Of a DNA stretch of 56,079 nt, positions 1,039 through 42,898 are shown piece after piece. The notes below the pieces were generated by a model. It had not been told where the DNA came from. It did not search any database and saw only the letters and a program-made list of their open reading frames with translations. Every line of letters starts with the position of its first letter. The stretch's first letter is position 1. Source of the stretch: a virus (taxonomy: Duplodnaviria; Caudoviricetes); the IMG/VR virus record IMGVR_UViG_3300044953_000549, positions 1 through 56,079 of that record, one strand, 5' to 3'. The translations under genes were made by a program, and so were the position numbers.

Positions 1039-4000
1039 CTATAATCTCTCGGTATCTTTAATTTCCGTAATATTTAAAGTAGGATACTTTTTTTCTACTT
1101 TACTTACGCCCATAATCATTGCCCCTATTATATGATTCTTTAACTCGGTATACTTAGCTTCATCCTCAATTAAACCTATCGGCACTTCAAATATAAGCTC
1201 ATCATGAACAGTATTAACCAGATAATTTTTTAAATAATCGGGAAGAGCAATAAGTGTCTCAAGCAATACTTCTCCGCAAGAACCCTGAACTGCCGTATTA
1301 ATCATCTCACAATAAGCATTATCTATATCCTCAAAATACCTCTTCCTCCCTCCTCTGGTTAAAGCATATCCTCTTGCTTTACATTCTGCTCTTTCCTTAT
1401 CTGACCATTTTTTTAGGAAAGAATAAGTAGCCCAGAATTTTGTTTTAATACTCTCTGCTTCTACTAACGTTAAATCAACATTATAAGCCTCTTTGGCATT
1501 AACTATAAACCTGCTAGCTCCCATACCATAAAGGAATCCGAAGTTGGCAGCTTTGGCTTTCTGACGCTCTGATTTCTGCCAGTCTATCGGTTGCTCAAGG
1601 AATGTTTTAAGCGGCATGTTATTAAGTCTTGCTGCCATAATAGCATGTGGGTCTTTCCCGCTATTAAAAGCTTCAATAAGTACTTTCTCGTTAGACATAG
1701 CTGCAACCATTCTAAGCTCCTGTCCCGAGAAGTCTGCCCTTACAAATCTATGACCCTCTCTTGCTTTAAAAATATGACGGAATCCTGAACGTGGGAAATT
1801 CTGAACGTTAGGGTTTATCGTAGATAATCTACCTGTTTCAGTACCGCAAATAAGAACATTAATAGGAAGTCTACCATCTACAATATTCTCCTCTACTCCT
1901 TTAATGATATTATTTATTAAAGAGTTGGTTTTGCGGACTTCCTCTACTATCTTCATAACATCAGGAGTTACTTTATCCATAACCTCTTTCTTGGTTCTGA
2001 TATTATTATTATAAGTAATAACATCACCAAAGCCAAGATCGGTTAATTTCTTAAGTAGTTCATCTCTTTTGTTTTCCTTCTCTATTCTTAGATTTCTTAA
2101 AGCCTCAATATCAACAGGCAAACCTTTTTTAGCATAAGCATCTATGATGAAGCTAGCCGTATACATTCTATCGTATACAGGCTTATTTACATCCCTGAAC
2201 TTCTGCCATAATAGATAAGTAGCCTTAGCATCTTTAGCAGCGTATTCCAGTTGTTCCTTCGTTAATTCTTCTGCCCAGTTAGAAGTTTGCATTACTTTCT
2301 TGTTGTTATACGTAATACCTGTATAAGGACTTAAATCACCTATGCTACAGCGTCTTTTGGAAGTAGCAGCATGGTAGGCTATCATGGAACAATTTAAGTT
2401 CTTTAAATACGGCATAAACGATCTCTCAAAAGATGCGTTATGAGCAACAAAATTAATTTCTGAGAGTAAATTCTTCTCTTCCTCTGTTAATGGGGAATCA
2501 AAGACTTTATAGATGAATACCTTATCCAGATTGGGATTGTATATCTGGATTAGTGCTATTTTACTATTACTTGCTTTTAAGCCCGTTGTTTCTATATCAA
2601 GGCCGTAAACAATATCCGATATAAAATAATTTTTGAAATGCAATAATCTTGTTTTATTATCAACTACTTCATATTCAACAGTTGTTATAGGAACTTCTAT
2701 TGGTTCAGGTATTTGAGACTCAACTACTTTATTCTCTTCCTGTTTATCTTCTTGTTCAGATTCAAATATTGTCTCTTTTGTTATAGTATTTTCATTTAAC
2801 TTATCATCTAGTATAGGTCCTTCTAAACCTTTTATAAGAACCTTATATTGACCTTTTTTATTCTCTTTAAATCCGTATTTCTCTAAAGCCGTTTTAAATT
2901 GTTTTCTAATATTAGGTGTATTTTTAGCTGAAGCAAAAATTTCTTTTATTCTTTCAATAATTGCAATAGGTCTTCTAGCTTTACTATATTCAGGATTAAC
3001 AATATCTAAATTAATATAAGACAAAACATATTCAGTGCCCTCATCTTCTTCTACAAATCTAATAGACAATGTTTTTAATAGATTTCTTTCTTCTTCTGTA
3101 AGCTCATATATAGGAGATATTTCTCTTCTCGGATATTTAATTTTATACTCAAATATTTCCTGTTTTAATTCTACTATTAACTGAGCATATATTTGCATTA
3201 TATCAAATTCTTCGTATTTAATTTTAGATACTGGTAAAGTTAAAAATCTTGTATTTTCATCACTAGGATCAAATATTTTCATTCTATTAACACTACCTGC
3301 AAATGCTGTAGTTCTTCTGGTTTCTCTATGTTCTTTTATAAATTTTAAATCAATTTTATCATATGTTTTTGATATAAATTGTTTAATAACACCGCTTTTA
3401 TTGCTTTTAAGAATATCATCCAATTCTCCAAGTTCTACTAAAGAAGAATCTAATAATTGTTTTAAATTCATACGATCTTTTAAATCAACTTCTGCTGATA
3501 CATCATTATAATATCCCTCACCTAAATCAGGAGGTACTAAATTTTCAATAAATGTCGATTTACCTATATGTTCCTTACCTTGAAAAACTAATACCTGTCT
3601 TGCTTTTAACCCTTTTCTAGGATCATTATTAAAACAATTTATACAAATATATTGTTTTAAATATTTCTTCAAAATTATTTTTTTTATATTTTCCCACTCA
3701 GGAGGAACAACCAATAAGGAATAGAAATGTTCTAATCTATCAGTATTATCCCAATTAACACTTAACATTTTATCTCGAACAACATTTCTTATATTACTTT
3801 TACATAATAAATCTATTGCATTTCCTAGTAGTTTTTCATCTTTCCCTAGTTTATGTTTAATACACTTAAATATCATCCACTCTAACTTTGTTTCATATTT
3901 ATCTGGATCTGGATCATATTCTTCTATATTTATTTTTAATTCTTTATAATAGTCTGAATAATGTATAATTATTTCTTTTTTTTTCTTTATAACATCATAA

Positions 4001-5061
4001 TAACATTCAATATTGTAATATTTAAATAAAGCATCATAATTTTCAAAATCATTAGTAGGTTTACCTTTTTTATTTTTTATGGGTAACACCAATTTATTTT
4101 TATTTACATCAATAATATCTACATTTTCAATTTCATTGACACGCTTAATAATTGTCGCAAAAGTAAGAGGCCTGATTTTATCTTCTGTTCTAGTATTCTC
4201 ATAATAATGTGTATTACATCCATCAATTATCCCCTCTTTTGTTCTTTTTTTATCTCTTAAAGCCCATTCAAGTAAGATATCATACCCTTCCTTATTTCCT
4301 TGATATTGATGATGCAAAGCAAAAACAACATCACGCCATTCAGGGTAACCAATAATTTCTGATTCATACTTATTAAGTACCTCTTTTACTCTCTCTGTTG
4401 TAACATCAGGAAGAGGTAAATGATTATAAGTAGCTTCAATATCTGATATATTGATATTATTTTGTATTAATTTTTTGTTTTCATGAGCTTTATATGTATA
4501 TCCATAATCATTTAAATCAATTAACTTACCTTTATTATATTTGGCGGTAAATCTATCAAGACCATCATTTTTACCTATACAAGGTACATACATTCTCCTT
4601 GTAGCTTCATAACTAGAACTATCTATAGCCCTACTTAATGAATCACTAAATATTCGTAATACAATACTACGAGATAAAGGATCGTAAAATTCCGGTTGTA
4701 TCAATCCTATAGGAAATAAAATTATACGTATTTTAGGTTTTAGAAAAGTATGACTATATGTTGTATAATAAATATATTGATAATTTTTTAAATATTTTTC
4801 AATATCTTTAACCATTACATTAAAATTATCTTCATAACTATCAAGATCATATATAAATAAAGTTCTATATTCCAGATTATCGGACTTAATACCACCCTTA
4901 AAATATCCACCAAATAATAAGGGTAAATCATTCTTAGCCTTATCTTCAGTGTTTATTGTATATGTTTTTAGTTTATCTATAATTGAATTAACATTTAAAT
5001 CTAAAACCTCTGGTTTATTATTAGTTTTAGAAGAAAAGAAACATACTCTATATGTAAACAT
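1039..5061 (-). CDS. polA: primase (PriCT-2) / VirE-type helicase / 3'-5' exonuclease / family-A DNA polymerase fusion
   Basis: PriCT-2-like WRDVVFALHH..GYDILLEWA; Walker A GKEHIGKS with VirE-like ELGELD, RRTTAFAGSVN, NTRF; exonuclease DIETTG, HNASFE, YAAKDA; PolA motifs DFSGQELR, KAANFGFLYG, VHDE. Confidence 0.92.
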   Translation of the reverse strand: MFTYRVCFFSSKTNNKPEVLDLNVNSIIDKLKTYTINTEDKAKNDLPLLFGGYFKGGIKSDNLEYRTLFIYDLDSYEDNFNVMVKDIEKYLKNYQYIYYTTYSHTFLKPKIRIILFPIGLIQPEFYDPLSRSIVLRIFSDSLSRAIDSSSYEATRRMYVPCIGKNDGLDRFTAKYNKGKLIDLNDYGYTYKAHENKKLIQNNINISDIEATYNHLPLPDVTTERVKEVLNKYESEIIGYPEWRDVVFALHHQYQGNKEGYDILLEWALRDKKRTKEGIIDGCNTHYYENTRTEDKIRPLTFATIIKRVNEIENVDIIDVNKNKLVLPIKNKKGKPTNDFENYDALFKYYNIECYYDVIKKKKEIIIHYSDYYKELKINIEEYDPDPDKYETKLEWMIFKCIKHKLGKDEKLLGNAIDLLCKSNIRNVVRDKMLSVNWDNTDRLEHFYSLLVVPPEWENIKKIILKKYLKQYICINCFNNDPRKGLKARQVLVFQGKEHIGKSTFIENLVPPDLGEGYYNDVSAEVDLKDRMNLKQLLDSSLVELGELDDILKSNKSGVIKQFISKTYDKIDLKFIKEHRETRRTTAFAGSVNRMKIFDPSDENTRFLTLPVSKIKYEEFDIMQIYAQLIVELKQEIFEYKIKYPRREISPIYELTEEERNLLKTLSIRFVEEDEGTEYVLSYINLDIVNPEYSKARRPIAIIERIKEIFASAKNTPNIRKQFKTALEKYGFKENKKGQYKVLIKGLEGPILDDKLNENTITKETIFESEQEDKQEENKVVESQIPEPIEVPITTVEYEVVDNKTRLLHFKNYFISDIVYGLDIETTGLKASNSKIALIQIYNPNLDKVFIYKVFDSPLTEEEKNLLSEINFVAHNASFERSFMPYLKNLNCSMIAYHAATSKRRCSIGDLSPYTGITYNNKKVMQTSNWAEELTKEQLEYAAKDAKATYLLWQKFRDVNKPVYDRMYTASFIIDAYAKKGLPVDIEALRNLRIEKENKRDELLKKLTDLGFGDVITYNNNIRTKKEVMDKVTPDVMKIVEEVRKTNSLINNIIKGVEENIVDGRLPINVLICGTETGRLSTINPNVQNFPRSGFRHIFKAREGHRFVRADFSGQELRMVAAMSNEKVLIEAFNSGKDPHAIMAARLNNMPLKTFLEQPIDWQKSERQKAKAANFGFLYGMGASRFIVNAKEAYNVDLTLVEAESIKTKFWATYSFLKKWSDKERAECKARGYALTRGGRKRYFEDIDNAYCEMINTAVQGSCGEVLLETLIALPDYLKNYLVNTVHDELIFEVPIGLIEDEAKYTELKNHIIGAMIMGVSKVEKKYPTLNITEIKDTERL

Positions 5062-20459: not shown

Positions 20460-22511
20460 TTAATATATAATATTGCTTCTAATTGATTCATCATCTGGTT
20501 CAACATAATCTCCAGGATTCATCAATCTGCCAAGATTCCTTAAAACTATTAACGCTTGTGTCATTGTATCTACATAATCAAGAGATCTTGGATTAGGGAA
20601 ATATGATACTTCATTAATAAAATTCTTGGCGAAAGGTGCAGGTTCGTAGATATCAACAGATTTATCGATATCCAGCGGCATCCAAACCATTCCCCCTTCT
20701 ATTAAAGGTGTTATAAGTCTTACTCTTTGAAGTTTATCTCCATGTTTATTAGGTACAAAAGGCTCTGCAAACACTCCTCCCCTATTTAAATCAGCTATTA
20801 ACGGATCTCCTGAAGCTTTCGCTTCTATTATTATTCTATCAGGAGCATTAAACGGGTTATATTCAAGAGTTTCATATCCAGTATCCATATAATTCACCGA
20901 TAACCTCTTAACTCTTTCCCTCAGCTCAGGATATTCAAGTCTATCACGCCAGCAGGAAATCAAAATAACGTTGGTATTATCATATTTATCCCTAAAAATC
21001 CCCCATGTAGTACAAGCTGAATAAGCTGAACTTTCCTTAGCTGTAAGTGCCGTATCCCAGCTTTGCAATACATATTCAAATCTAGGTAACTGAGAGTGTT
21101 TATAAACCCTGAACCAGTGTTTCTTTATAATACCACCTTCAAGAGGTGCAGGTCTTTGCTGATACAGTGCCGCATAATCATACGATCCAAGCTCTTTTTT
21201 TAATTTTTCTACTTCCGATTGATCCATTCTCTCGGTAAGCAGCTCGCCTTCTTCCGTTCTTATGTCCTTCCAGATACCCATATATTTACTCGTTAATGTA
21301 TCATCAACAAAATCAGGCAAATAAACAGTTGGAACTACATATTCCTTCTCAAATTCAAGAGGAAGTATCAATTTTACCCATTCGTTCTTTATATCATTCT
21401 GTATTACATAACCAGATACATCAAGTTCATTACCTCTTTGCTGTACAAGTATTCTACATGTGCGTGATTCCTCATTAAGTATTACCCTGTTATACCATTT
21501 AAGAGACCACCATTTGTTGGTAGATTCCTGAATCACTTCCGACTCTCCTCCTACTGCATTAGGATCATCGCAATTATGGACAAGGATATTATTAGCGAAA
21601 TAATTGTTATTCCCTTCTATCTCTAAATTATAGACATATTCAGGTACAATATTCTGTTTACTTACAAATTTAACAATAACCTCATGTAAATGATTGTTAA
21701 TATTATATAAACATCTATCATATTCTTTTATATCTTTTATATGCTTATAACCAAAACCAGCAACATATACAGGATGTTCTTCAGTAGCTTCAATTTCAAT
21801 ACCATTTTGAAAAGCACAAACATATAATTTTAATTTATATGTTGTTTTACCTTCATGTTTATAATATTTAATAATTTTTTTATATTCTGTAGTATTTAAT
21901 TTATGATTATAAGTTAATATTTTAATATCAAGTTTATTATCTACTATATAACCTATATTAAATTCCCCATAAATAGTGGATACTTTTGTCTCATATGGTA
22001 TACAAATTAATATACTACCACCTTTTCCGATTACCGAAGATGTAACGGATGTTGAATATCGATAACCTTTCTTATCATTAACAAAATACCCTTTAGCGTT
22101 CTGATCTGATCTAAGCTTAAATCTATCACCCCATCTGGATTTAAACCAATCAGACATTAAAAGCAGTCTACTCTTGTCTGCGATATCTAGCGATAATCCG
22201 TTTGTTATAGAAGAACATAGAAATTTCTCGTTAGGGTTATGGATCCAAACCCATGCAGGAAACGCAACAGATATCAAACTAGTTTTTCCGAGACGAGGTG
22301 GAACGTTTATAAGTAGATTGGTGATTCTTCTATAATAAACATTCTCCAGATGTTCCGCTATAACCCGCAAAAACCATTCATCCGAAAAATAACCTGATCC
22401 GTCTATAATAGGTAAAGCCTGTTTATAGAACTCATACAAAGAGCTTTCAGCAAGAATTTTCAATCTTTCTTCATCGTCCTGCGGTAATAAAAGATCTGTG
22501 TATTTAATCAT
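20460..22511 (-). CDS. terL: terminase large subunit (intein-containing)
   Basis: LLINVPPRLGKT Walker A; Walker B ILI|CDDP; YQQRP; QSWDTA; IEAKASG; DYVDTMTQA. Confidence 0.95.
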   Translation of the reverse strand: MIKYTDLLLPQDDEERLKILAESSLYEFYKQALPIIDGSGYFSDEWFLRVIAEHLENVYYRRITNLLINVPPRLGKTSLISVAFPAWVWIHNPNEKFLCSSITNGLSLDIADKSRLLLMSDWFKSRWGDRFKLRSDQNAKGYFVNDKKGYRYSTSVTSSVIGKGGSILICIPYETKVSTIYGEFNIGYIVDNKLDIKILTYNHKLNTTEYKKIIKYYKHEGKTTYKLKLYVCAFQNGIEIEATEEHPVYVAGFGYKHIKDIKEYDRCLYNINNHLHEVIVKFVSKQNIVPEYVYNLEIEGNNNYFANNILVHNCDDPNAVGGESEVIQESTNKWWSLKWYNRVILNEESRTCRILVQQRGNELDVSGYVIQNDIKNEWVKLILPLEFEKEYVVPTVYLPDFVDDTLTSKYMGIWKDIRTEEGELLTERMDQSEVEKLKKELGSYDYAALYQQRPAPLEGGIIKKHWFRVYKHSQLPRFEYVLQSWDTALTAKESSAYSACTTWGIFRDKYDNTNVILISCWRDRLEYPELRERVKRLSVNYMDTGYETLEYNPFNAPDRIIIEAKASGDPLIADLNRGGVFAEPFVPNKHGDKLQRVRLITPLIEGGMVWMPLDIDKSVDIYEPAPFAKNFINEVSYFPNPRSLDYVDTMTQALIVLRNLGRLMNPGDYVEPDDESIRSNIIY
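21573..22004 (-). mobile_element. 144-aa mini-intein without homing endonuclease, in TerL Walker B
   Basis: Starts CIPYETKV; block B ATEEHP; ends VYNLEIEGNNNYFANNILVHN followed by Cys. Confidence 0.93.
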
Positions 22512-24392: not shown

Positions 24393-24433
24393 TTGTCTAC
24401 AATACATATATAACAGTATACTAAATTAGTCAA
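24393..24433 (-). promoter_or_regulatory. leftward promoter with TTGT-N2-ACAA operator near +1
   Basis: TTGACT at 24433-24428, TGnTATATA-type -10, TTGTAGACAA at 24402-24393. Confidence 0.55.
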
Positions 24434-24503
24434 CTAATTATACATAAACGACATTATGACAAATTATAAATACAGGAAATCTTTGGATGATTATAAGAAG
24501 TAT

Positions 24504-24643
24504 TAGAAATAAAAAAAAGAACCTTGAATGACTAAGGTTCTTTTTATTTTGATTTATATATGCTTTTTTCTTTTTAAAAAGAAAAAAAACAACAGATTAA
24601 CTTTTATGATAACCACAATATAACATAAAACATACACTGTCAA
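24504..24643 (-). ncRNA. predicted small RNA A (promoter, ~100-nt body, terminator)
   Basis: TTGACA plus TGnTATATT; 48 bp identical (inverted) to 32002-32049; GAACCTT-loop-AAGGTTC-T8 terminator; no ORF. Confidence 0.55.
24514..24545. terminator. bidirectional intrinsic terminator, copy 1
   Basis: AAAAAGAACCTT-GAATGACT-AAGGTTCTTTTT. Confidence 0.8.
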
Positions 24644-25005
24644 TCTCATAAATATAAAAAAAATATTATCTGCAAGAATAACGTTCGTTTTCTAGATAGT
24701 TTAAAAGTTATCTATTTAAAATCTATAAATTATACAATAACTCATTCCAGTAATCTAAATAAGATTGACCTTATTGTTTTACCTTTTCTTGCGGAAACTA
24801 GAAATTCAACTAATAGGATTTCCTTGTAAAAACTAGAAATTCAATTAACACGATAAATATTTTCATAAAAATTTTTTTATTTCTAAAATTTTTATCTACT
24901 GAAAATTTTCTATAAATCTGAATTTTGAAATTTATAGATATTTTTAACTTAGGTTAAGTTTATATCTTAAATATAGTTTAAACGAGTTTTAAATATGTTT
25001 TTAGA

Positions 25006-25128: not shown

Positions 25129-25775
25129 GGTCGGTTACTATTTTGATATTTATTAGGTTTTCAATATACCGCAACACCTTTATTTATAAGGCTTGCAAGG
25201 CTAAACACAAAAAAATTCAAAATTTTTGTAACCGACCAAAAGTTATAAAACGACCTAGTAACCGACCTACCCCAACGCCTTATGCAACAAGGTGTTGAAG
25301 GGGTATGGTCGGTTACTGAGCTATTTTTCGCCTATAATATATAAATAAATATATAATATTACCTGTTCTTTTTATTACTATATTTTCTCTCTTTTTATAT
25401 TTTTTTCTTCTTAAATATATAAATATTACTTACCTTACCGACCTTATATATTTGAAAAGTATATATAATAAGGGTTTATAATAGGTCGTTTAGTTGGTCG
25501 TTTACTAGGTCGTCGGTCGTTTCAAAAATAGCAAAAATTCCGGGGTCAAAAACCAATTTTTTATACCCTTGAACACCAGTTGTTCACTGGCTTTGAAGGC
25601 TTTTTCATACACCCCGCAAACCCAGTACCCACCGTTGAGAAAAAAAAACACTAAAAAAGCGTAAATTTTGAATAATTTTAGACATATAAAAAAACTAATA
25701 AGTTTTTTTATATCATATTTCTCATAATTTGTCAAATATCCTCCAATCCTTGTTGTATTAAAGGGTTTGAGGGGA
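25129..25775. repeat. iteron array 1 (GGTCGGTTACT/GGTCG cores), putative replication origin
   Basis: About 10 GGTCG/CGACC cores in both orientations (25129-25522) around an AT-rich core, with interspersed imperfect CCTT...AAGG palindromes. Confidence 0.65.
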
Positions 25776-25960: not shown

Positions 25961-26020
25961 TAATATTTTGTAGACAATTTAATATTTATTGTTGACATAG
26001 TAAATTTCAACTAATAAGAT
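25961..26020 (+). promoter_or_regulatory. early promoter 1 with upstream TTGTAGACAA box
   Basis: TTGACA-17-TAAGAT; first 37 bp identical to 33411-33447. Confidence 0.8.
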
Positions 26021-26060
26021 ATAACTACGAACACAAAAACAATAACAAAAAGGTAAAATT

Positions 26061-26648
26061 ATGAACATAAACAGATATAACAAAATTCTAACTACATCAC
26101 CTTCAGGTTTGTATATTGAGCCGTTTTTCAAGTCTTACGATTTATTTCCATTGAATTTAAGTGAAAATTTATACAATGGTAATTTTGAAATAGAGATTCC
26201 GGATTTTATTATAGAAGCGGAACTGTTAGACAGATATTCAGATATATTTAGAAAATCCAAATTTAAAAGTCCGTACTGGCAAGACAGACTGACAGAGAAA
26301 CAGGAGGATGCTTATCATGAAGTTAGAAATGATCTTATAGGAGGAGCTTTAATATTAAACTCTGCTTGGCAAACTTTTAATTATGATGAGGGTATAGCAT
26401 ATCTTTGTGGGTTATTACCTTTTAAATTAACAGGTGATAATATAGATAAAGAGTTGTTGTCTTTATGGGGTTACGGAATGAATTTTAGTTACAAACTAGA
26501 AGCATATCAACTACTTGTAGATTGTTCTTATGATGAGAAAAGTTATTTTGCAAGTCAGGGGATTGAATACTTTGAAAAACACTACGGCTCTTCTTCCCTT
26601 GTTGTATGCGAGATAAGGAAGATGTTAGAGATACAAAAGGCAGCTTAA
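26061..26648 (+). CDS. early hypothetical protein
   Basis: 195 aa, AAGGTAAAATTATG leader. Confidence 0.75.
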   Translation: MNINRYNKILTTSPSGLYIEPFFKSYDLFPLNLSENLYNGNFEIEIPDFIIEAELLDRYSDIFRKSKFKSPYWQDRLTEKQEDAYHEVRNDLIGGALILNSAWQTFNYDEGIAYLCGLLPFKLTGDNIDKELLSLWGYGMNFSYKLEAYQLLVDCSYDEKSYFASQGIEYFEKHYGSSSLVVCEIRKMLEIQKAA

Positions 26649-28047: not shown

Positions 28048-28389
28048 ATGTACACAATAAACTTTTTTACATTAGACGAAATGTTTAATGACCATAAAAC
28101 TTTCATAGAAAACATGTTGAATTACGAGTTGAATTTATCATCTCTAGATGATGTAAAATCCTTTTTAGGTAGCGATTTTTATGAAAATGTTTATGAAAAC
28201 ATACTTGGGTTTACAGATGGAATTGTAATAACAGATGAAAATAATGAAGTAATCTATAAGGAAAGGTTTAATACAGATACTATATTTAACATACACACAG
28301 ATGAAGAAGGTAACATAATTTATAATGCAATAGAAGATGGTGAAAGTAATTATTTAATGGAAGACAAATATAAACTTTATTATAGGTAA
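28048..28389 (+). CDS. early hypothetical protein; intact paralog of the split gene at 31858-32980
   Basis: Start MYTINFF after GAGGT; YELNLSSLDDVKSFLGSDFY, GIVITDENNEVIYKE. Confidence 0.7.
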   Translation: MYTINFFTLDEMFNDHKTFIENMLNYELNLSSLDDVKSFLGSDFYENVYENILGFTDGIVITDENNEVIYKERFNTDTIFNIHTDEEGNIIYNAIEDGESNYLMEDKYKLYYR

Positions 28390-29224: not shown

Positions 29225-29617
29225 ATGATAAATGACAAACACACTAATAATTCTTATGAAATACGCAGAGAAATAGAAAAATGTTATAACAATGAACAAA
29301 TTGAGAATATATTAAAAAGTTTCTCTAAGTTATGCACAAATATCAAGGAATTAACACCGAGAGATTTTGTAGAATGTGCAATACAGCTTATAAATTCGCT
29401 CCCTACTATGAATGAAGTCATAGCTTTGAAAATAGTAACTTATTTATATTCTATATTAGAGTATTTACCTGAATATGAGCTACATCATATATTAGGTATT
29501 AATAATACATATGGGGAAAGTAAATATAAATTACTTGATTTTCTAGTATATCCTTCAATTAAAAAGAAAATTAAAATGTTTATAGAGTATAGTAAATTAC
29601 AGAAGCAAGATAAATGA
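29225..29617 (+). CDS. early hypothetical protein
   Basis: 130-aa coupled ORF. Confidence 0.6.
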   Translation: MINDKHTNNSYEIRREIEKCYNNEQIENILKSFSKLCTNIKELTPRDFVECAIQLINSLPTMNEVIALKIVTYLYSILEYLPEYELHHILGINNTYGESKYKLLDFLVYPSIKKKIKMFIEYSKLQKQDK

Positions 29618-29835
29618 ATATAGTTGAAATAATGAAAATTGCTGAAAATAAAGATAAATTAAGACGTAAAGAATGGGGAGAGACAGGAAGTAGGGGAGCA
29701 TCAATATTATTTTTATATAAGAATGATGAGAAATACATTCCTATTTACTATCAAGGAGCTCAACCTTGTTTTAGATTAAGTACTTTTTTAATAAAAGAAG
29801 ATTATATAGCTGATGACTGGGAGATAGTAGAATGA
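29614..29835 (+). CDS. DUF2829/Tad2-like protein 1
   Basis: MNIVEIMK...LRRKEW...EDYIADDWEIVE. Confidence 0.7.
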   Translation: MNIVEIMKIAENKDKLRRKEWGETGSRGASILFLYKNDEKYIPIYYQGAQPCFRLSTFLIKEDYIADDWEIVE

Positions 29836-30200
29836 GTAAAGAATTAATAGATGAATTGAAAAATATTATTAGAGCTAATCCAACACTGGATTTAATAGAA
29901 GAAAGAAGAGAAAGAGAAGTTTTGTATATACTATATATAAATGATTCAACACAAACAGCAGTTACAGTAAATACAAGAAATGAATTTAATATCAAAACAT
30001 TAGAGCAAATAATAGATGACGATAAAACTAGATATGAAGCACCTACTAAAGAACAACTATGTAAATTCTATCTTGAATTTATTAAGAACAATAGCGGTCA
30101 TGATTTAGTTTTTGATATTGACGGTTCTATATACAGGAAAATAAAAAAGGTTAGTAAGGAGTTAAACTTTATAATATATGAATATTTAATAAACAGGTAA
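29832..30200 (+). CDS. early hypothetical protein
   Basis: ATGA-coupled ORF. Confidence 0.6.
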   Translation: MSKELIDELKNIIRANPTLDLIEERREREVLYILYINDSTQTAVTVNTRNEFNIKTLEQIIDDDKTRYEAPTKEQLCKFYLEFIKNNSGHDLVFDIDGSIYRKIKKVSKELNFIIYEYLINR

Positions 30201-30204
30201 TAGA

Positions 30205-30480
30205 ATGACAATAAGTAAAGAAAGAGTAGAAGAGTTAAGGTCTATATTTTTAAATAATTTACGTAAAGAATTTGAAGAAGAAATATCTTATCATATAGAC
30301 GAGCTTGGTAAAAATCCTGAAAAATTTTTTAAATCTTATTACAAAACTTTAATGAAGGATTGTATGGAAGAAAGAGGTTTAAGAAGTATTAATGGTTATA
30401 TAGGTATTGAATTTCCATTAAGATTAAATGATTTTACAGAAGAAGAAATTAAATATTTAGAAGAGGATAAAAGAAAATGA
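30205..30480 (+). CDS. early hypothetical protein
   Basis: ORF with CAGGTAA RBS. Confidence 0.6.
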   Translation: MTISKERVEELRSIFLNNLRKEFEEEISYHIDELGKNPEKFFKSYYKTLMKDCMEERGLRSINGYIGIEFPLRLNDFTEEEIKYLEEDKRK

Positions 30481-30653
30481 AAACAAAAATAAAACAAATT
30501 GAAAGAGATTTTTACGAACTAGATAATTTATGTAATTCGTGTAGTTCCCCTCTACCTGTGTTTGATATGTTAACAATTAAAATAGGTAATTCAAGATATG
30601 GTTCGCCTCTTTGTATTAATTGTCTTAATGAAAGAGGTATTAGTTATGAATAA
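30477..30653 (+). CDS. 58-aa CxxC...CxxC zinc-finger-like protein
   Basis: Manual translation: LCNSCSSPL...LCINCLNE; ATGA overlap with the upstream stop. Confidence 0.6.
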   Translation: MKTKIKQIERDFYELDNLCNSCSSPLPVFDMLTIKIGNSRYGSPLCINCLNERGISYE

Positions 30654-30834
30654 AGTAAAATTAAGAAACAAAATGCGAATAGGTGAAATAGAATTTGATG
30701 TTGTTGTACTTGATAATGGAGAAAGAGTGATAACAGAGGAAAGTTTACAAAAATTTATTGATGCAATGAAACTAGGAAACAATAAAGAAGTTAAAAAATT
30801 AATGAAGGATATTAGGATACATTATGTTGATTAA
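30646..30834 (+). CDS. small protein resembling the N-terminal part of P63C-domain proteins
   Basis: IGEIEFDVVVLDNGERVITEESL; GAGGT RBS favours a start at 30646. Confidence 0.5.
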   Translation: MNKVKLRNKMRIGEIEFDVVVLDNGERVITEESLQKFIDAMKLGNNKEVKKLMKDIRIHYVD

Positions 30835-30902
30835 ATACGCAATAATGTTATTAATTGTATTAACATTCGTAATAACAGCTACTTTTATTTTAAAATTTAT
30901 TT

Positions 30903-31145
30903 TTGATAAAAATAATTAAAACTATGGAATCACAATTTTGGACTACTAAAAATAGTAGAAAATTAAAAATCACTAATATCCGTGATGATCATTTAATAAA
31001 TATACATAAAATGCTATTGCGTAAAGACTTACATATTTACGAAATTAATTATGAAATGAGACGTAGAGGTTTTCTTCCAATTTCACCTGTAATTGAATTA
31101 TGGGAAATAGAACGTTTTCAAAATAGTTATGATGATCAATTATAA
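30903..31145 (+). CDS. small phage protein
   Basis: WTTKN...I..I.DDHLINI.KML motif. Confidence 0.6.
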   Translation: MIKIIKTMESQFWTTKNSRKLKITNIRDDHLINIHKMLLRKDLHIYEINYEMRRRGFLPISPVIELWEIERFQNSYDDQL

Positions 31146-31154
31146 AACAGGTAA

Positions 31155-31529
31155 GTGAAAATGAACATAATCGAAGCATTAAATGAAGTTAGGGATGGTA
31201 ATACAGTAACCCGCATAAACTGGTTTGATAATATTGTCGTTATGCTTTCTTCAGAAACTGGAAAAATAGTTGTACATAATACATGTACCAATGAGGACTT
31301 GGACTATCTTTTTACCGCAGACGATGTACAAGCAGATAATTGGGTAATAAAGCACTATAGACGACCATTGACTTTTGTTGACGCATTTAAAAAAGTTAAA
31401 AATGGTAAGAAAGTAAGAAGAAAAGTTTGGAATGATGATTGTTATATAACAGGTGATACTAGATTAAACAGTTTCTTCTTAGCAGAGGAAGATTTACTGG
31501 CTAATGATTGGGAGGTTATAGAAGCATGA
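31155..31529 (+). CDS. tandem two-domain DUF2829/Tad2-like protein
   Basis: MNIIEAL..V.DG..V.R.NW...DVQADNW plus LTFVDAF..VKNGKKVRRKVW...DLLANDWEV. Confidence 0.8.
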   Translation: MKMNIIEALNEVRDGNTVTRINWFDNIVVMLSSETGKIVVHNTCTNEDLDYLFTADDVQADNWVIKHYRRPLTFVDAFKKVKNGKKVRRKVWNDDCYITGDTRLNSFFLAEEDLLANDWEVIEA

Positions 31530-31753
31530 ATATAATAGAAGCAATTAATAGCTTGAAAGAAAATCCTGAATTGGCAATGAAATCAAAATATTTTACAATA
31601 ATATATGATGCTGATAAGAATGTTTTTTATCAACTTGAATATTACGAAAGAGGTGATGGGTTATTTGATGAAGAATTTTCTAGAATTGATATAGAAGAAA
31701 ATATCTTTTGTTTAAAAGATATTTTAAACAATGATTGGGAGGTGGTGGAATGA
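31526..31753 (+). CDS. DUF2829/Tad2-like protein 3
   Basis: MNIIEAINSLK...DILNNDWEVVE. Confidence 0.6.
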   Translation: MNIIEAINSLKENPELAMKSKYFTIIYDADKNVFYQLEYYERGDGLFDEEFSRIDIEENIFCLKDILNNDWEVVE

Positions 31754-31848
31754 GTGATATAGAAATTATAATGTTAATACATACAATAATTTTAATTGTT
31801 GGGATAATAGGTCTTGGACTTAGTTTTTGGTATAATATGAATAATTAG
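31750..31848 (+). CDS. 32-aa single-TM peptide
   Basis: MSDIEIIMLIHTIILIVGIIGLGLSFWYNMNN, ATGA-coupled. Confidence 0.45.
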   Translation: MSDIEIIMLIHTIILIVGIIGLGLSFWYNMNN

Positions 31849-31986
31849 CAGGACAAAATGTATACAATAAACTTTTTTAATTTAGCGGAAATAGAACGTA
31901 AACAATATAAACATCCTAGCTGTAATCTTTGCAATACATTTTACGAAGAAAAACGATTATATTTTGAATTTAAATTAACAAACCTG

Positions 31987-32130
31987 TTGATTTTCTTATG
32001 TTTTTATGTTATATTGTGGTTATCATAAAAGTTAATCTGTTGTTTTTTTCTTGGTATAAAATTACTAAGAAAAAATTTTTATAAGTATAAAAAGAACCTT
32101 GAATGACTAAGGTTCTTTTTTTTATTTCTA
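31987..32130 (+). ncRNA. predicted small RNA B (sister of A)
   Basis: TTGATT-17-TATATT (TGn extended); 48-bp identity with A; terminator at 32089-32123. Confidence 0.55.
32089..32123. terminator. intrinsic terminator, copy 2
   Basis: AAAAAGAACCTT-GAATGACT-AAGGTTCTTTTTTTT. Confidence 0.8.
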
Positions 32131-32355
32131 TTTCTTCTATAAATTACCGATAAAAATTCTTAATAAATTTCCCTTACCTAAAACCAATATTAAATTTCTT
32201 AAACCTTAATAATTTTGAAAAATTTTATGAAATTTCTATTTTTAATTTAGACATCAAAGATACAAGCAAAAATTATCATCAAAACTATCATCAAAATTAT
32301 TGAATATTTCATCATACTAAAAATATAAAATTTTACTCTGATTTTAGACACTCCC

Positions 32356-32692
32356 AAAAAAGTTGGAAGACGCTCAACACCAGTTAAATAAAGGGGTTCA
32401 ATGGATATATAAAAAACCCGTCTTTCAACAAGAAAACCAAAATTGGAAGACGCTCAACACAAGGATATATAAAGGTTTTAAGGGGAATCTTCCAATCTTC
32501 CAACTTTTTTAGAACAGTGTCTATATATATTAGAGAAAATAAAAATATCTATTTTCTTATTTTTCAATTATTATAATTATTTTTCTATATACACATACAT
32601 TAAAAAAAGTTGGAAGATTGGAAGATTATACCTTGAATACAAGTTGAATAAAGGTTTTCAGCATCTTCCAACTTTTTTACCTAGTTGGAAGA
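32356..32692. repeat. iteron array 2 (TTGGAAGA), putative replication origin
   Basis: 8 exact TTGGAAGA/TCTTCCAA copies; perfect 25-bp inverted repeat 32486-32510 / 32603-32627 around an AT-rich core. Confidence 0.7.
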
Positions 32693-32984
32693 CACACCTA
32701 TATTGAAGATGTAAAATCATTTTTACATTCTAATTTTTATAAACAAATTGTACACCACATTGATAATGAGCCTTATATAAATGAAGAAAGAATATTTGGG
32801 ATTATTATAACTTCACATAATGAAATTATTTATAAAAAGTTACTTAGAAATTGGTTTTGTGATGATAAATATTTAGCAATACATAGTAATATTGATAATA
32901 AAACCATTTATAAAACGGTTAATGATAAAGAAATTATTGAAGATTTGGTTTTAGTTTGTAATAAGGGATTGTTAGAATAATAAA

Positions 32985-33194
32985 ATGAACATTAAACAAC
33001 TTATAGAACAAAATAAAGTTCAATATGATTTAACAAATAAAGATAAAACAAAAATTTTAAATATCCGTGATGGATTATATAAAGTATTTGATGATAAAAC
33101 TAATACTTGGGTTAAATATAATTTAGATGATTTAGAAAAATTAAATTTTGAACTTTTTATACAAATTTTATTTGATGATTGGGAGGTAATATAA
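32985..33194 (+). CDS. divergent DUF2829/Tad2-like protein 4
   Basis: MNIKQLI...ILFDDWEVI. Confidence 0.45.
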   Translation: MNIKQLIEQNKVQYDLTNKDKTKILNIRDGLYKVFDDKTNTWVKYNLDDLEKLNFELFIQILFDDWEVI

Positions 33195-33407
33195 ATGAAA
33201 AGATTAGAGATACTTATAGACGAGAAAAATGATAGATTTAAGATACTTAACCACGACAATCTGAACTATTCCGATGTTACAAGATATCTTGCGGATTCTA
33301 TGGTACATATTATAAACGATAATTATATGGGTGATAAAATTCAATTTCTTGAAGATTTACTAGAACCAATGAAACAGGATTTAATAAACTTGAATAAAGA
33401 AAAATAA
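33195..33407 (+). CDS. early hypothetical protein
   Basis: GGAGGT RBS. Confidence 0.65.
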   Translation: MKRLEILIDEKNDRFKILNHDNLNYSDVTRYLADSMVHIINDNYMGDKIQFLEDLLEPMKQDLINLNKEK

Positions 33408-33410
33408 ATA

Positions 33411-33470
33411 TAATATTTTGTAGACAATTTAATATTTATTGTTGACAGATATAAAAACAACTACTAATAT
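33411..33470 (+). promoter_or_regulatory. early promoter 2 (duplicate of promoter 1)
   Basis: TTGTAGACAA box, TTGACA-17-TAATAT. Confidence 0.8.
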
Positions 33471-33509
33471 ATAAATACGAACACAAAAATAATTAAAAAG
33501 GTAAACATC

Positions 33510-33821
33510 ATGAAAATTAAAGACGACATACTACTAGAATATATTAAACCTCATATATCAGAGAAAGTATACAATTTGTTATATGATAATATTAATGAAC
33601 CAAAAGAATATAAGGTTGCTTTTAAAGAAGCAGAAAAAAAAACATCAGAAGATTACAGTATAATTTTTCATTCTCTTACGGAAAGTTTTTATTTTCTAAA
33701 AAGCAATCTGATTATCAATTTATTGAAAATGTCTAATATATTTGATTCCATAGAAGTTTCATTAATAACAGTTCAAGGTGATAAACTATTGTTTAAGTTC
33801 AATGTAAAAGATTTATATTAA
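33510..33821 (+). CDS. early hypothetical protein
   Basis: Shared GAACACAAAAA...AAGGTAAA leader. Confidence 0.65.
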   Translation: MKIKDDILLEYIKPHISEKVYNLLYDNINEPKEYKVAFKEAEKKTSEDYSIIFHSLTESFYFLKSNLIINLLKMSNIFDSIEVSLITVQGDKLLFKFNVKDLY

Positions 33822-33825
33822 AATT

Positions 33826-34308
33826 ATGAATAACAATCAGGAAGAAAAATTAAAAATACAAATAGATGATTTTATCTTAAATATGAAATTCAAGGATTTA
33901 TTGCATACATATTTTAAGGATACGCACCCATTTTTAAATAGAATAAGTATAAAAGAAATAGATTCAGGTTTTGTTTTTAATGAAGATGAAAGTTTATTGG
34001 CTAGAATGGAAACATATCAATATCATTGTTTTAATGAAGATAGTAATAAGGATTTGTTAATAATTTCAGACACAATTAAAAATATTTTTAATAATCTAGA
34101 AGAAAAAGCAAAATATATTTTTAATCCTTTGTATTCAGAAATGAATATCATCTTTATAAGAGAAGAAATAAACTATCAATGTTTTATAAATCAAATTACA
34201 AAAAGAAGATGTATTCTAGTAATGGGTAGATTTGGGTTTTACAATATATTAACAAATAATGATTGTAAAACAGTTAAAACAGAGGACGGACAAGAAGTGC
34301 CATTATAA
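33826..34308 (+). CDS. early hypothetical protein
   Basis: 160-aa ORF. Confidence 0.6.
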   Translation: MNNNQEEKLKIQIDDFILNMKFKDLLHTYFKDTHPFLNRISIKEIDSGFVFNEDESLLARMETYQYHCFNEDSNKDLLIISDTIKNIFNNLEEKAKYIFNPLYSEMNIIFIREEINYQCFINQITKRRCILVMGRFGFYNILTNNDCKTVKTEDGQEVPL

Positions 34309-34324
34309 AAATAGTGTTAATATT

Positions 34325-34717
34325 ATGCCTAAGAAAAATATAAAAATAGATGATATACATGTTCATATAGGTAACAAAATAAAAATATACCGATATGAGA
34401 TAGGGTTATCAAGAAGTGAATTAGCCCCTAAAATTAATATCAGTCAACAGCAATTAACTAAGTATGAAGCAGGAGTAAATAAAATATCTGTCGGTAGATT
34501 GCTTCTACTTGCTAATGTATTAAATAAAAATATAACAGATTTTATATATACTGATGAATGGGAAATTAATACGGAAAATCTATCACGTATTGATATGGAG
34601 ATATTATGTAATTTAAGTAGTATTAAAAATCCTGAACTAAAGGAAAATATTAATACATTAATAAAAACAACAATTAAATCATATGTTGATACAACAGAAA
34701 TTAAAAAGTTTGGATAG
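34325..34717 (+). CDS. XRE-family HTH regulator of alphaproteobacterial type
   Basis: HIGNKIK.YR...GLSRSELA..INISQQQLTKYEAGVNKISVGRL; likely start ATG 34325. Confidence 0.88.
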   Translation: MPKKNIKIDDIHVHIGNKIKIYRYEIGLSRSELAPKINISQQQLTKYEAGVNKISVGRLLLLANVLNKNITDFIYTDEWEINTENLSRIDMEILCNLSSIKNPELKENINTLIKTTIKSYVDTTEIKKFG

Positions 34718-34737
34718 TAAAGAAATAGAGGTTTTAA

Positions 34738-34965
34738 ATGAGTATAATAATTATTATTGCTATTATAACAATAGGTCAGATAGCAATAGCTATAATGATA
34801 AGCAGTAATATTGATGATTGTGATAGATATAGACGTAACGAGCAATACGGTATTAGTATTAATGTTATAGATAATATAAAAAGAAAATCCGTTATTATAA
34901 GTAAACTGAGTAAATTAATAATATTATTACTTGGTATTGTGTGGGGATTTATAATAATTAAATAA
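34738..34965 (+). CDS. small two-TM membrane protein
   Basis: Hydrophobic N- and C-termini. Confidence 0.55.
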   Translation: MSIIIIIAIITIGQIAIAIMISSNIDDCDRYRRNEQYGISINVIDNIKRKSVIISKLSKLIILLLGIVWGFIIIK

Positions 34966-35067
34966 TTATGGTAATTAAACTGATTGTAATAGCTTTATTA
35001 CTTGTTTTTATAGTTGGGATTGGAACATATATAATGAAGCTGATATTTGATAAAGAGGACTAAATAT

Positions 35068-42863: not shown

Positions 42864-42898
42864 AATTTGTAGACAAATTAGTGTTATTTCTATATACT
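42864..42898 (+). promoter_or_regulatory. promoter of small RNA C, overlapped by the AATTTGTAGACAAATT palindrome
   Basis: TAGACA-17-TATACT. Confidence 0.65.

Follow-up and report, generated by a model that had tools for sequence, protein, structure and literature searches.

How did a stretch of DNA that encodes no protein, and that carries a predicted small RNA gene and an array of short repeats, come to lie in the middle of a phage gene, and what could it do there? The question is raised by virus record IMGVR_UViG_3300044953_000549, whose whole length of 56,079 bp, with direct terminal repeats, is the stretch analysed here (hereafter, the window). The window is a complete 56-kb phage, 71% AT, which encodes a large terminase, tail-fibre-like and virion proteins, a SNF2-type helicase and an Enc34-type single-stranded-DNA-binding protein (Pfam, PHROG). 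A reading of this DNA made from its sequence alone had proposed that a cassette of about 718 bp, consisting of an RNA gene and repeats, had inserted into a small gene near 32 kb as an undescribed kind of non-autonomous mobile element. Here, we demonstrate that the insertion is genuine and exactly 718 bp long, and we argue, with somewhat better than even confidence, that it is a replication-origin module of plasmid type.

An exact insertion of 718 bp

A small early gene is broken in two by exactly 718 bp. Its parts and its intact paralog lie as follows.

31858-31984, plus strand: N-terminal part of the broken gene, 42 codons; the frame runs on into the insert and stops at 32026-32028, giving an open reading frame (ORF) of 56 amino acids (aa)
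31985-32702, no strand: the protein-free insert, 718 bp, with no ORF of 60 aa or more inside; 31981-32698 is an equally good boundary
32703-32980, plus strand: C-terminal part of the broken gene, 92 codons plus stop, absent from the ORF list, its frame read from the sequence
28048-28389, plus strand: intact paralog of the broken gene, 113 aa

As had been proposed, the two halves align significantly with the paralog, the N-terminal half with 9 of 12 residues identical (E 2e-4) and the C-terminal half (32702-32980) with 27 of 78 (E 9e-9). A protein search with the C-terminal half returned two matches at E ≤ 0.001 among three candidates, P0001 (134 aa) and P0002 (133 aa), which are uninterrupted orthologs to which both halves align. 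Residues 1-41 of P0001 are covered by the N-terminal half (27/41, E 1e-17) and residues 41-134 by the C-terminal part (73/94, E 5e-51). The clusters of these orthologs have two members each, one member lying on a 43-kb contig. Deletion of 31985-32702 yields a frame of 134 codons, the same length as P0001, with the Thr-41 codon present on both sides of the insert; residue 42 is Asn before the insert and Tyr after it, in agreement with the orthologs. The C-terminal part lacks an in-frame ATG, GTG or TTG from the upstream stop (32645-32647) to the point at which homology sets in.

At the nucleotide level, the empty site is documented solely by a table of contig joints, for which the contigs of four public runs were aligned to positions 30000-35000. 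In run X6, which belongs to another study than run X1, a 468-nucleotide (nt) contig with a depth of 55.5 covers 31825-31984 and 32703-32956, skipping 718 letters with zero letters between and with 161 letters on the shorter side of the joint. Because its two parts carry 30 and 41 letter differences, this contig is assigned to a related phage. A further contig, of 2.8x depth, connects 31980 with 32699 and again skips 718; the two empty-site contigs split 4 nt apart, and the boundary of the insert is fixed to within these 4 nt. As for the filled site, the two junctions are spanned by X1 contigs with 0 differences, at 31158-32031 (left) and 32091-33439 (right); X1 is the best holder of the window (0.95 of words) and possibly its source sample, and thus constitutes an independent assembly but not independent data. 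Since related contigs skip 718 letters and removal of these letters restores the 134-codon frame, the insertion is genuine and exactly 718 bp. By parsimony over the paralog, the two orthologs and the two contigs, it is the window's lineage that gained the insert. That the event is recent, as had been suggested from both halves being still open, is plausible.

That the split gene is an assembly chimera, a possibility that the sequence-only reading had itself raised, or an intron spliced from the messenger, is hardly credible. Both junctions are spanned by individual contigs with 0 differences, a terminator lies within the insert itself, and no Rfam family, introns included, reached its gathering score in the window; in a permissive Rfam scan of 31800-32800, only microRNA-precursor and snoRNA models appeared at E ≤ 1, far under threshold.

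The ends of the insert bear no marks of a transposition machinery. No target duplication was found, the flanks agreeing at 8 of 26 letters at an offset of 718 and the joint sharing at most 1 letter. The similarity ACA(A/C)ACCT noticed earlier at the junctions does exist (7 of 8 letters), but it recurs at an offset of 714 rather than 718 and would break the frame, and was therefore rejected as an 8-bp target duplication, the boundary itself remaining ambiguous by 4 nt. Among the 25 longest of 70 inverted pairs, none links the two ends of the insert, which agrees with the earlier description of a cassette devoid of terminal inverted repeats and of coding capacity.

The broken gene has no Pfam family, and its atlas matches reach at most 0.82, under the lead threshold. 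Protein-guided scans of IMG/VR with the C-terminal half, the paralog and P0001 gave no relative covering the site, and a search of the phage collection with P0001 gave no match. None of the three related phage contigs (L022-L024) extends to 24-35 kb; a more distant relative, L031, is syntenic and lacks the broken gene. The gene sits in an accessory island together with a cluster of small early proteins ending in DWEV(V/I)E (31155-31529, 29614-29835, 31508-31753 and 32985-33194), a similar run of which is present in L031. One protein of this cluster has two matches to the Pfam Tad2-like (Thoeris anti-defence) domain (E 1.9e-14), the others having been judged by eye.

A repeat array with a homolog in a Megaera plasmid

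From left to right, the insert contains four parts.

31987-32015, plus strand: promoter-like site of RNA B, TTGATT and TATATT around a 17-nt spacer, read from the sequence
32018-32128, plus strand: predicted RNA B, about 105-110 nt, comprising three hairpins, of which the first is at the 5' end, the middle one is U/A-rich and the last is a terminator followed by a T run
32129-32355, no strand: spacer, 80% AT (32126-32355, 230 bp), partly conserved with the plasmid described below, relative to which it has a 60-nt insertion
32356-32692, no strand: repeat (iteron) array, eight exact copies of TTGGAAGA and one degenerate copy at 32421 (minus strand)

The exact copies of TTGGAAGA start at 32363, 32443, 32610, 32618 and 32685 on the plus strand and at 32488, 32496 and 32664 on the minus strand. 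Eight of the ten exact copies in the window thus fall within 330 bp (32363-32692), 2.64 being expected window-wide and none of 100 shuffles reaching ten. The sets of repeats are inverted around a core of 106 nt (32504-32609) that is 85% AT, compared with 71% for the genome. The array therefore has two of the features by which iteron origins are recognised, short repeats clustered above chance and repeat sets flanking an AT-rich stretch, while the third, adjacency to a cognate initiator gene, is seen in the plasmid and not in the phage, where the array lies about 27 kb from the replicase. Two additional lake-water runs, from other studies, contain near-identical pieces of the cassette at low depth, with 8 differences over 408 nt in one case and 1 difference plus an 8-nt indel over 186 nt in the other. 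A low-depth contig of run X3 carries 8 extra letters (TATATATA) at 32521, within the AT-rich core, so the length of the core differs between samples.

In the plasmid collection searched, the only similar DNA is CP113873.1, a 27-kb plasmid of Candidatus Megaera polyxenophila, with 71% identity over 364 columns and 75% over 170. The homology extends from the -35 of the RNA promoter through the last repeats, and the RNA gene and array hence form one unit that is present in the plasmid in a different context, which bears out the earlier proposal that the two moved together. The plasmid repeats correspond position for position to those of the insert, each reading TTGGAACA instead of TTGGAAGA; one and the same G/C letter change at the aligned sites is the outcome expected if the repeats had co-evolved with a protein that binds them specifically. 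All eight exact copies of TTGGAACA in the plasmid lie within 2682-3052 (1.12 expected) and form its sole repeat cluster, with the start of the replicase gene, at 3568, some 500 bp away. A TTGGAACA array next to a replicase gene looks like the expected picture of the plasmid's origin. GC skew tracks gene orientation in both phage and plasmid, and no origin could be located from it.

The right end of the unit is not shared, the plasmid array being one repeat longer and the window copy stopping at a TTGAA common to plasmid and target. On the left, 13 nt separate the plasmid unit from a preceding promoter and ribosome-site module, which is followed by no gene. A module of this kind, about 95 nt long and containing the motif TTGTAGACAA, is found in the window at 25967-26062 and 33402-33505, before two early operons, where it precedes real genes at 26061 and 33510; the plasmid version (L006 4617-4705) is 78% identical and stands directly before the RNA and repeat unit. 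The TTGTAGACAA motif alone occurs before the late operon, at 24393-24402 (minus strand), and at 42867-42876.

Besides CP113873.1, no further copy of the 718-bp unit was found in IMG/VR, the JGI metagenomes, 400 Rickettsiales genomes, or the phage and plasmid collections, in searches that used exact motifs or scored few candidates and could thus miss distant copies. All 13 IMG/VR loci matching a 19-mer were an unrelated coding junction, and the 25-mer of the RNA 5' end and the 22-mer of the terminator had 0 matches each in IMG/VR. The eight metagenome loci matching a 20-mer were 50-63% GC and without similarity to the window. Weak AT-rich matches of at most 51.8 bits were present in 77 of the 400 Rickettsiales genomes (two candidates scored per genome, one genome unscored), and the phage collection gave no copy. 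The window holds one copy of the full unit, and its known contexts are two, the phage gene and the plasmid. In the open-access literature, no paper was found that dealt with the origin of CP113873.1, a Megaera phage or an insertion like this one.

Replicases, the resident module and two related RNAs

The window has an enzyme and a repeat module of its own with which the insert can be compared.

1039-5061, minus strand: phage replicase, 1340 aa, a fusion of primase, PriCT, VapE-like helicase, 3'-5' exonuclease and family A polymerase (Pfam, PHROG)
24514-24643, minus strand: resident RNA unit A, with a TTGACA promoter site, the same 25-nt 5' end as RNA B and a terminator hairpin at 24514-24545
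25129-25505, no strand: resident repeats GGTCGGTTAC, 4 exact and 3 degenerate, around an 84% AT stretch (25320-25433), between the divergent late and early operons

The polymerase part of the phage replicase matches the replicase of plasmid CP113873.1 with 90% nucleotide identity over 1249 bp and 89% amino acid identity over 548 residues, and a Megaera chromosome with 73% identity over 1549 bp. Given these matches and further genes common to phage and plasmid, the host of the phage is probably a Candidatus Megaera-like Rickettsiales bacterium; by terminase, the closest cultured relatives are Roseobacter phages, at 38-39% identity. In the plasmid replicase, the same polymerase part is combined with a DUF927 helicase, the N-terminal 1066 aa being otherwise unrelated to the phage replicase. 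No DUF927 domain was found in the window, which outside the polymerase part matches these 1066 aa only over a 97-aa PriCT-like stretch. The VapE-type helicase, in turn, is present in all three related phage records and absent from the plasmid. The replicases at phage 1039-5061 (minus strand) and plasmid L030 3568-8409 share an 89% identical exonuclease-polymerase and differ in helicase-primase, a domain swap within one fused replicase.

The resident GGTCGGTTAC module is the presumed native origin of the phage. At the syntenic site of L031, five copies of CCRGCTACC surround an AT-rich core, and modules of the resident type are likely the native origin class of VapE-type phages. The insert had earlier been considered a relative of the module at 24.5-25.8 kb, and this holds for the RNA unit (82% identity over about 146 nt, 24491-24634, opposite strand) and for a 10-nt motif, SAACACCAGT, these being all that the two have in common, but not for the repeats, which differ. 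SAACACCAGT, noticed post hoc, occurs in the window only at 25571-25580 and 32375-32384 (0.08 expected) and once in the plasmid array (L030 2709-2718), and a 15-nt sequence, CCCTTGAACACCAGT, is common to the resident module and the plasmid's right end; these could be a common host-factor or start site. Two direct copies of approximately AAACTAGAAATTCAA(C/T)TAA, 35 nt apart, were seen by eye at 24790-24850, between RNA A and the resident repeats.

Regarding the RNA, its 25-nt 5' end is found in the window only at 32018 (plus strand) and 24590 (minus strand). The predicted fold of RNA B has an energy of -29 kcal/mol (z -5.4, none of 200 shuffles being as good), and its terminator-like hairpin, at 32089-32120, has 13 pairs followed by a T run to 32128. 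Consensus-type promoter matches in the region are not above chance (78 found, 83.9 expected), and the promoter call for RNA B thus rests on conservation, both RNA A and the plasmid having a homologous site. In its first 33 nt, RNA B is identical to RNA A at 32 positions and to the plasmid RNA at 17, which indicates that the RNA gene of the insert was homogenised with RNA A. Near RNA A, the best match to a known small-RNA family was the patAB leader, with 24 bits against a gathering score of 92. Among public runs, no RNA data set was found to contain the stretch, and two presumed RNA runs contained 0.06 of its words. The terminator hairpins (24514-24548 and 32089-32120) are 97% identical on the plus strand though the two RNA genes are oppositely directed, and the hairpin loop is therefore inverted relative to the RNA in one of the modules, which hints at recombination at the hairpin.

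One possible reading of the predicted RNA, which concerns the RNA part alone and is compatible with the other accounts of the insert, is that it constitutes a promoter-leader-terminator unit for controlled read-through, like the short terminated transcript that precedes the lambda late genes, and not a trans-acting regulator; RNA A would then control entry into the packaging and late operon, and RNA B the passage of transcription through the repeats. RNA A indeed lies directly upstream of that operon (TerS-like and TerL downstream) and in the same orientation, the conserved part of the RNA is the promoter-proximal 50 nt, and a -10-like TATCAT, read from the sequence, is situated inside the early transcribed region. 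A search for targets in trans is in keeping with this reading too, since the best non-self duplexes (about -26.7 kcal/mol) reached about 4 standard deviations among approximately 11,000 windows and were not convincing. On the other side, the scan of 30 proteins revealed no antiterminator family, a distinct promoter module containing TTGTAGACAA intervenes after the RNA A terminator and ahead of the first late gene, the late operon of L031 is not preceded by a unit of this kind, and the RNA of the resident module points away from its repeats. We regard the leader function as a tentative proposal, and a rather doubtful one.

Some further features of the phage bear on its biology more generally. 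The large terminase gene (20460-22511, minus strand) contains an apparent intein (Pfam Intein_splicing, residues 197-313, E 1.1e-6, 29 bits, under the 35.8 cut-off), and its matches in known phages are split into two pieces. An XRE-type repressor-like protein is encoded at 34259-34717. No partition gene was recognised among the 30 phage proteins scanned, and the phage may be either lytic or a plasmid-like prophage.

How the insert may have arisen and what it may do

On balance, we lean towards the view that the insert is a plasmid-type origin module, copied from a plasmid-like replicon of the same Megaera-like host into a dispensable early phage gene, which was killed in the process. The module would be of the kind served by self-loading helicase-type replicases, its TTGGAAGA repeats binding a DUF927-type helicase-primase-polymerase like that of the plasmid. 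Because the phage encodes no replicase of the DUF927 type, the module would fire, or titrate the initiator, only with a matching plasmid replicase in trans, acting as a second origin or as a sink, and the VapE-type replicase of the phage would use the resident GGTCGGTTAC origin. Insertion would have proceeded by illegitimate, microhomology-type recombination between phage and plasmid, with no dedicated transposition machinery, and the promoter-proximal part of the RNA would have been homogenised with RNA A after arrival, which argues for a phage-specific role of the RNA. Recombination rather than transposition is supported by the missing target duplication and inverted ends, by the right end at the common TTGAA, which is compatible with a microhomology junction, and by the absence from the phage of the resolvase, IS110, IS200/605 and tyrosine recombinase families (PF00239, PF01548, PF01797 and PF00589; 0/4) in a check that covered the phage. 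Several points weigh against this view. Replication, protein binding and transcription of the module are predictions, and many phage proteins belong to no known family, so that TTGGAAGA could be bound by one of these. The collections searched yielded no plasmid with TTGGAAGA repeats, the only relative having TTGGAACA at 71-75% identity, so the donor is hypothetical, and the microhomology argument uses one plasmid sequence as its stand-in. Moreover, the left end of the insert falls within 2-6 nt of the start of homology in both other copies, which looks more like a defined unit than like a random break, and the geneless promoter and ribosome-site module before the plasmid unit could be an insertion scar.

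In the alternative put forward initially, a discrete non-autonomous mobile element, comprising origin and RNA, was moved whole by a recombinase acting in trans, independently into the phage gene and the plasmid. The insertion is exact, with an empty site in relatives; the left homology end coincides at the -35 in three copies; the plasmid unit begins 13 nt past a module of which two window copies stand before real genes; and some transposon families typically insert with no target duplication. However, the unit is known from two contexts, the motif matches in IMG/VR and the metagenomes (13/13 and 8/8) were unrelated and two other motifs had none, the best of the 400 Rickettsiales genomes offered 51.8 bits of AT-rich sequence, the right end differs from that of the plasmid, there are no terminal inverted repeats, and the four recombinase families are missing from the phage. 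The designation as an undescribed kind of mobile element thus finds little support, a single illegitimate recombination between phage and plasmid in a shared host explaining the data at least as well, and we consider an element of this sort unlikely. An RNA-guided IS110-like element was also considered and rejected, there being no DEDD recombinase and no internal-loop RNA architecture. The origin might, alternatively, not work in the phage at all, the insert being either a decoy by which a resident plasmid's replicase is titrated or handcuffed (an incompatibility, anti-plasmid or centromere-like function) or an inert recombination relic that has yet to decay. The cognate DUF927 replicase is not encoded by the phage, the array is shorter than the plasmid's, the broken gene indicates that the insertion is tolerated and is not evidence of selection, and lambdoid phages are reported to be inhibited by cloned lambda origin repeats (PMC3349717). 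Conversely, all eight repeats are exact and the AT-rich core is intact, the 5' part of the RNA has been kept identical to RNA A, suggesting selection or very recent conversion, and near-identical cassette pieces occur in the two further lake-water runs; a decoy or relic seems improbable to us. More speculative, and less probable still, is the notion that the 718-bp unit is a selfish "origin parasite", a protein-free replicon core, made up of initiator-binding repeats and a regulatory RNA, that passes between an intracellular symbiont's plasmids and phages and lives off the DUF927-type replicase of another replicon. Were this true, it would amount to origin piracy, in which the enzyme of a resident plasmid replicates incoming phage DNA at once, or the phage displaces the plasmid.

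Returning to the plasmid-type origin module that we favour, its parts have counterparts in known systems. The origins of Staphylococcus aureus pathogenicity islands (SaPIs) consist of two repeat sets flanking an AT-rich region. Sections of PMC7581432 relate DUF927 helicases to SaPIbov1 Rep and describe SaPI Rep helicases that bind iteron origins beside their own genes. As far as the accounts in PMC7581432 and bioRxiv 10.64898/2026.10.17.759575 go, the short repeats of the insert, in two sets around an AT-rich stretch, resemble the iteron origins of SaPI and phage-inducible chromosomal island (PICI) Rep and of the Cch/Cch2 proteins of staphylococcal cassette chromosome mec (SCCmec), and the Megaera plasmid repeats are likewise comparable in that they adjoin a DUF927 replicase gene and in that the repeat sequence changes with the replicon. 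Unlike those origins, the phage array is some 27 kb from the replicase, lacks a cognate helicase gene anywhere in the phage genome, is accompanied by a gene for a small terminated RNA, and sits inside a broken gene. No sequence homology to SaPI origins is claimed. The lambda origin also combines iterons and an AT-rich stretch inside a coding region, with the short hairpin-terminated oop RNA gene beside it. The insert resembles this arrangement in its iteron and AT-rich, origin-like array with a small terminated RNA gene alongside, within a coding region; yet the lambda origin sits in the intact O gene, whose product binds it, whereas the gene hit in the phage has no link to replication and is destroyed, and there is no sequence relation between the two. 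In being short, protein-free and precisely placed, the insert recalls miniature inverted-repeat transposable elements (MITEs) and the palindromic elements derived from the insertion sequences (IS) IS200/IS605. The IS200/605 type leaves no target duplication. Unlike MITEs and IS-derived elements, however, the insert has no inverted ends, no multicopy family and no matching phage transposase, and its content is a replicon control region. Finally, extrachromosomal prophages of actinobacteriophages exchange replication modules, including RNA-based origins, according to portions of PMC7157519. The insert is akin to these modules, which the same portions present as portable cassettes that differ between close phages, some with no protein gene and expressing RNA, but they occupy a fixed position, replace one another and serve as the sole maintenance origin, and are not inserted into an unrelated gene.

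The component parts are thus familiar, namely iteron origins, a small RNA beside an origin as in lambda, and portable phage replication modules, while their combination is unusual: the origin-type module is an orphan, encodes no protein, brings along an RNA gene and sits in a phage gene to which it is unrelated, and both its empty site and a homolog on a plasmid are documented. Origins are generally regarded as permanently paired with their initiator genes, and here a module of origin type stands alone, far from any matching initiator. The case documents a complete phage, and gene flow between phage and plasmid, in Rickettsiales of protists, where few phages have been described. An inert module would make this simply a neat instance of mosaic recombination. 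A module active in trans would provide a concrete, clonable test object of 718 bp, and would mean that an obligate intracellular symbiont's phages and plasmids are sharing, stealing or jamming one another's replication machinery.

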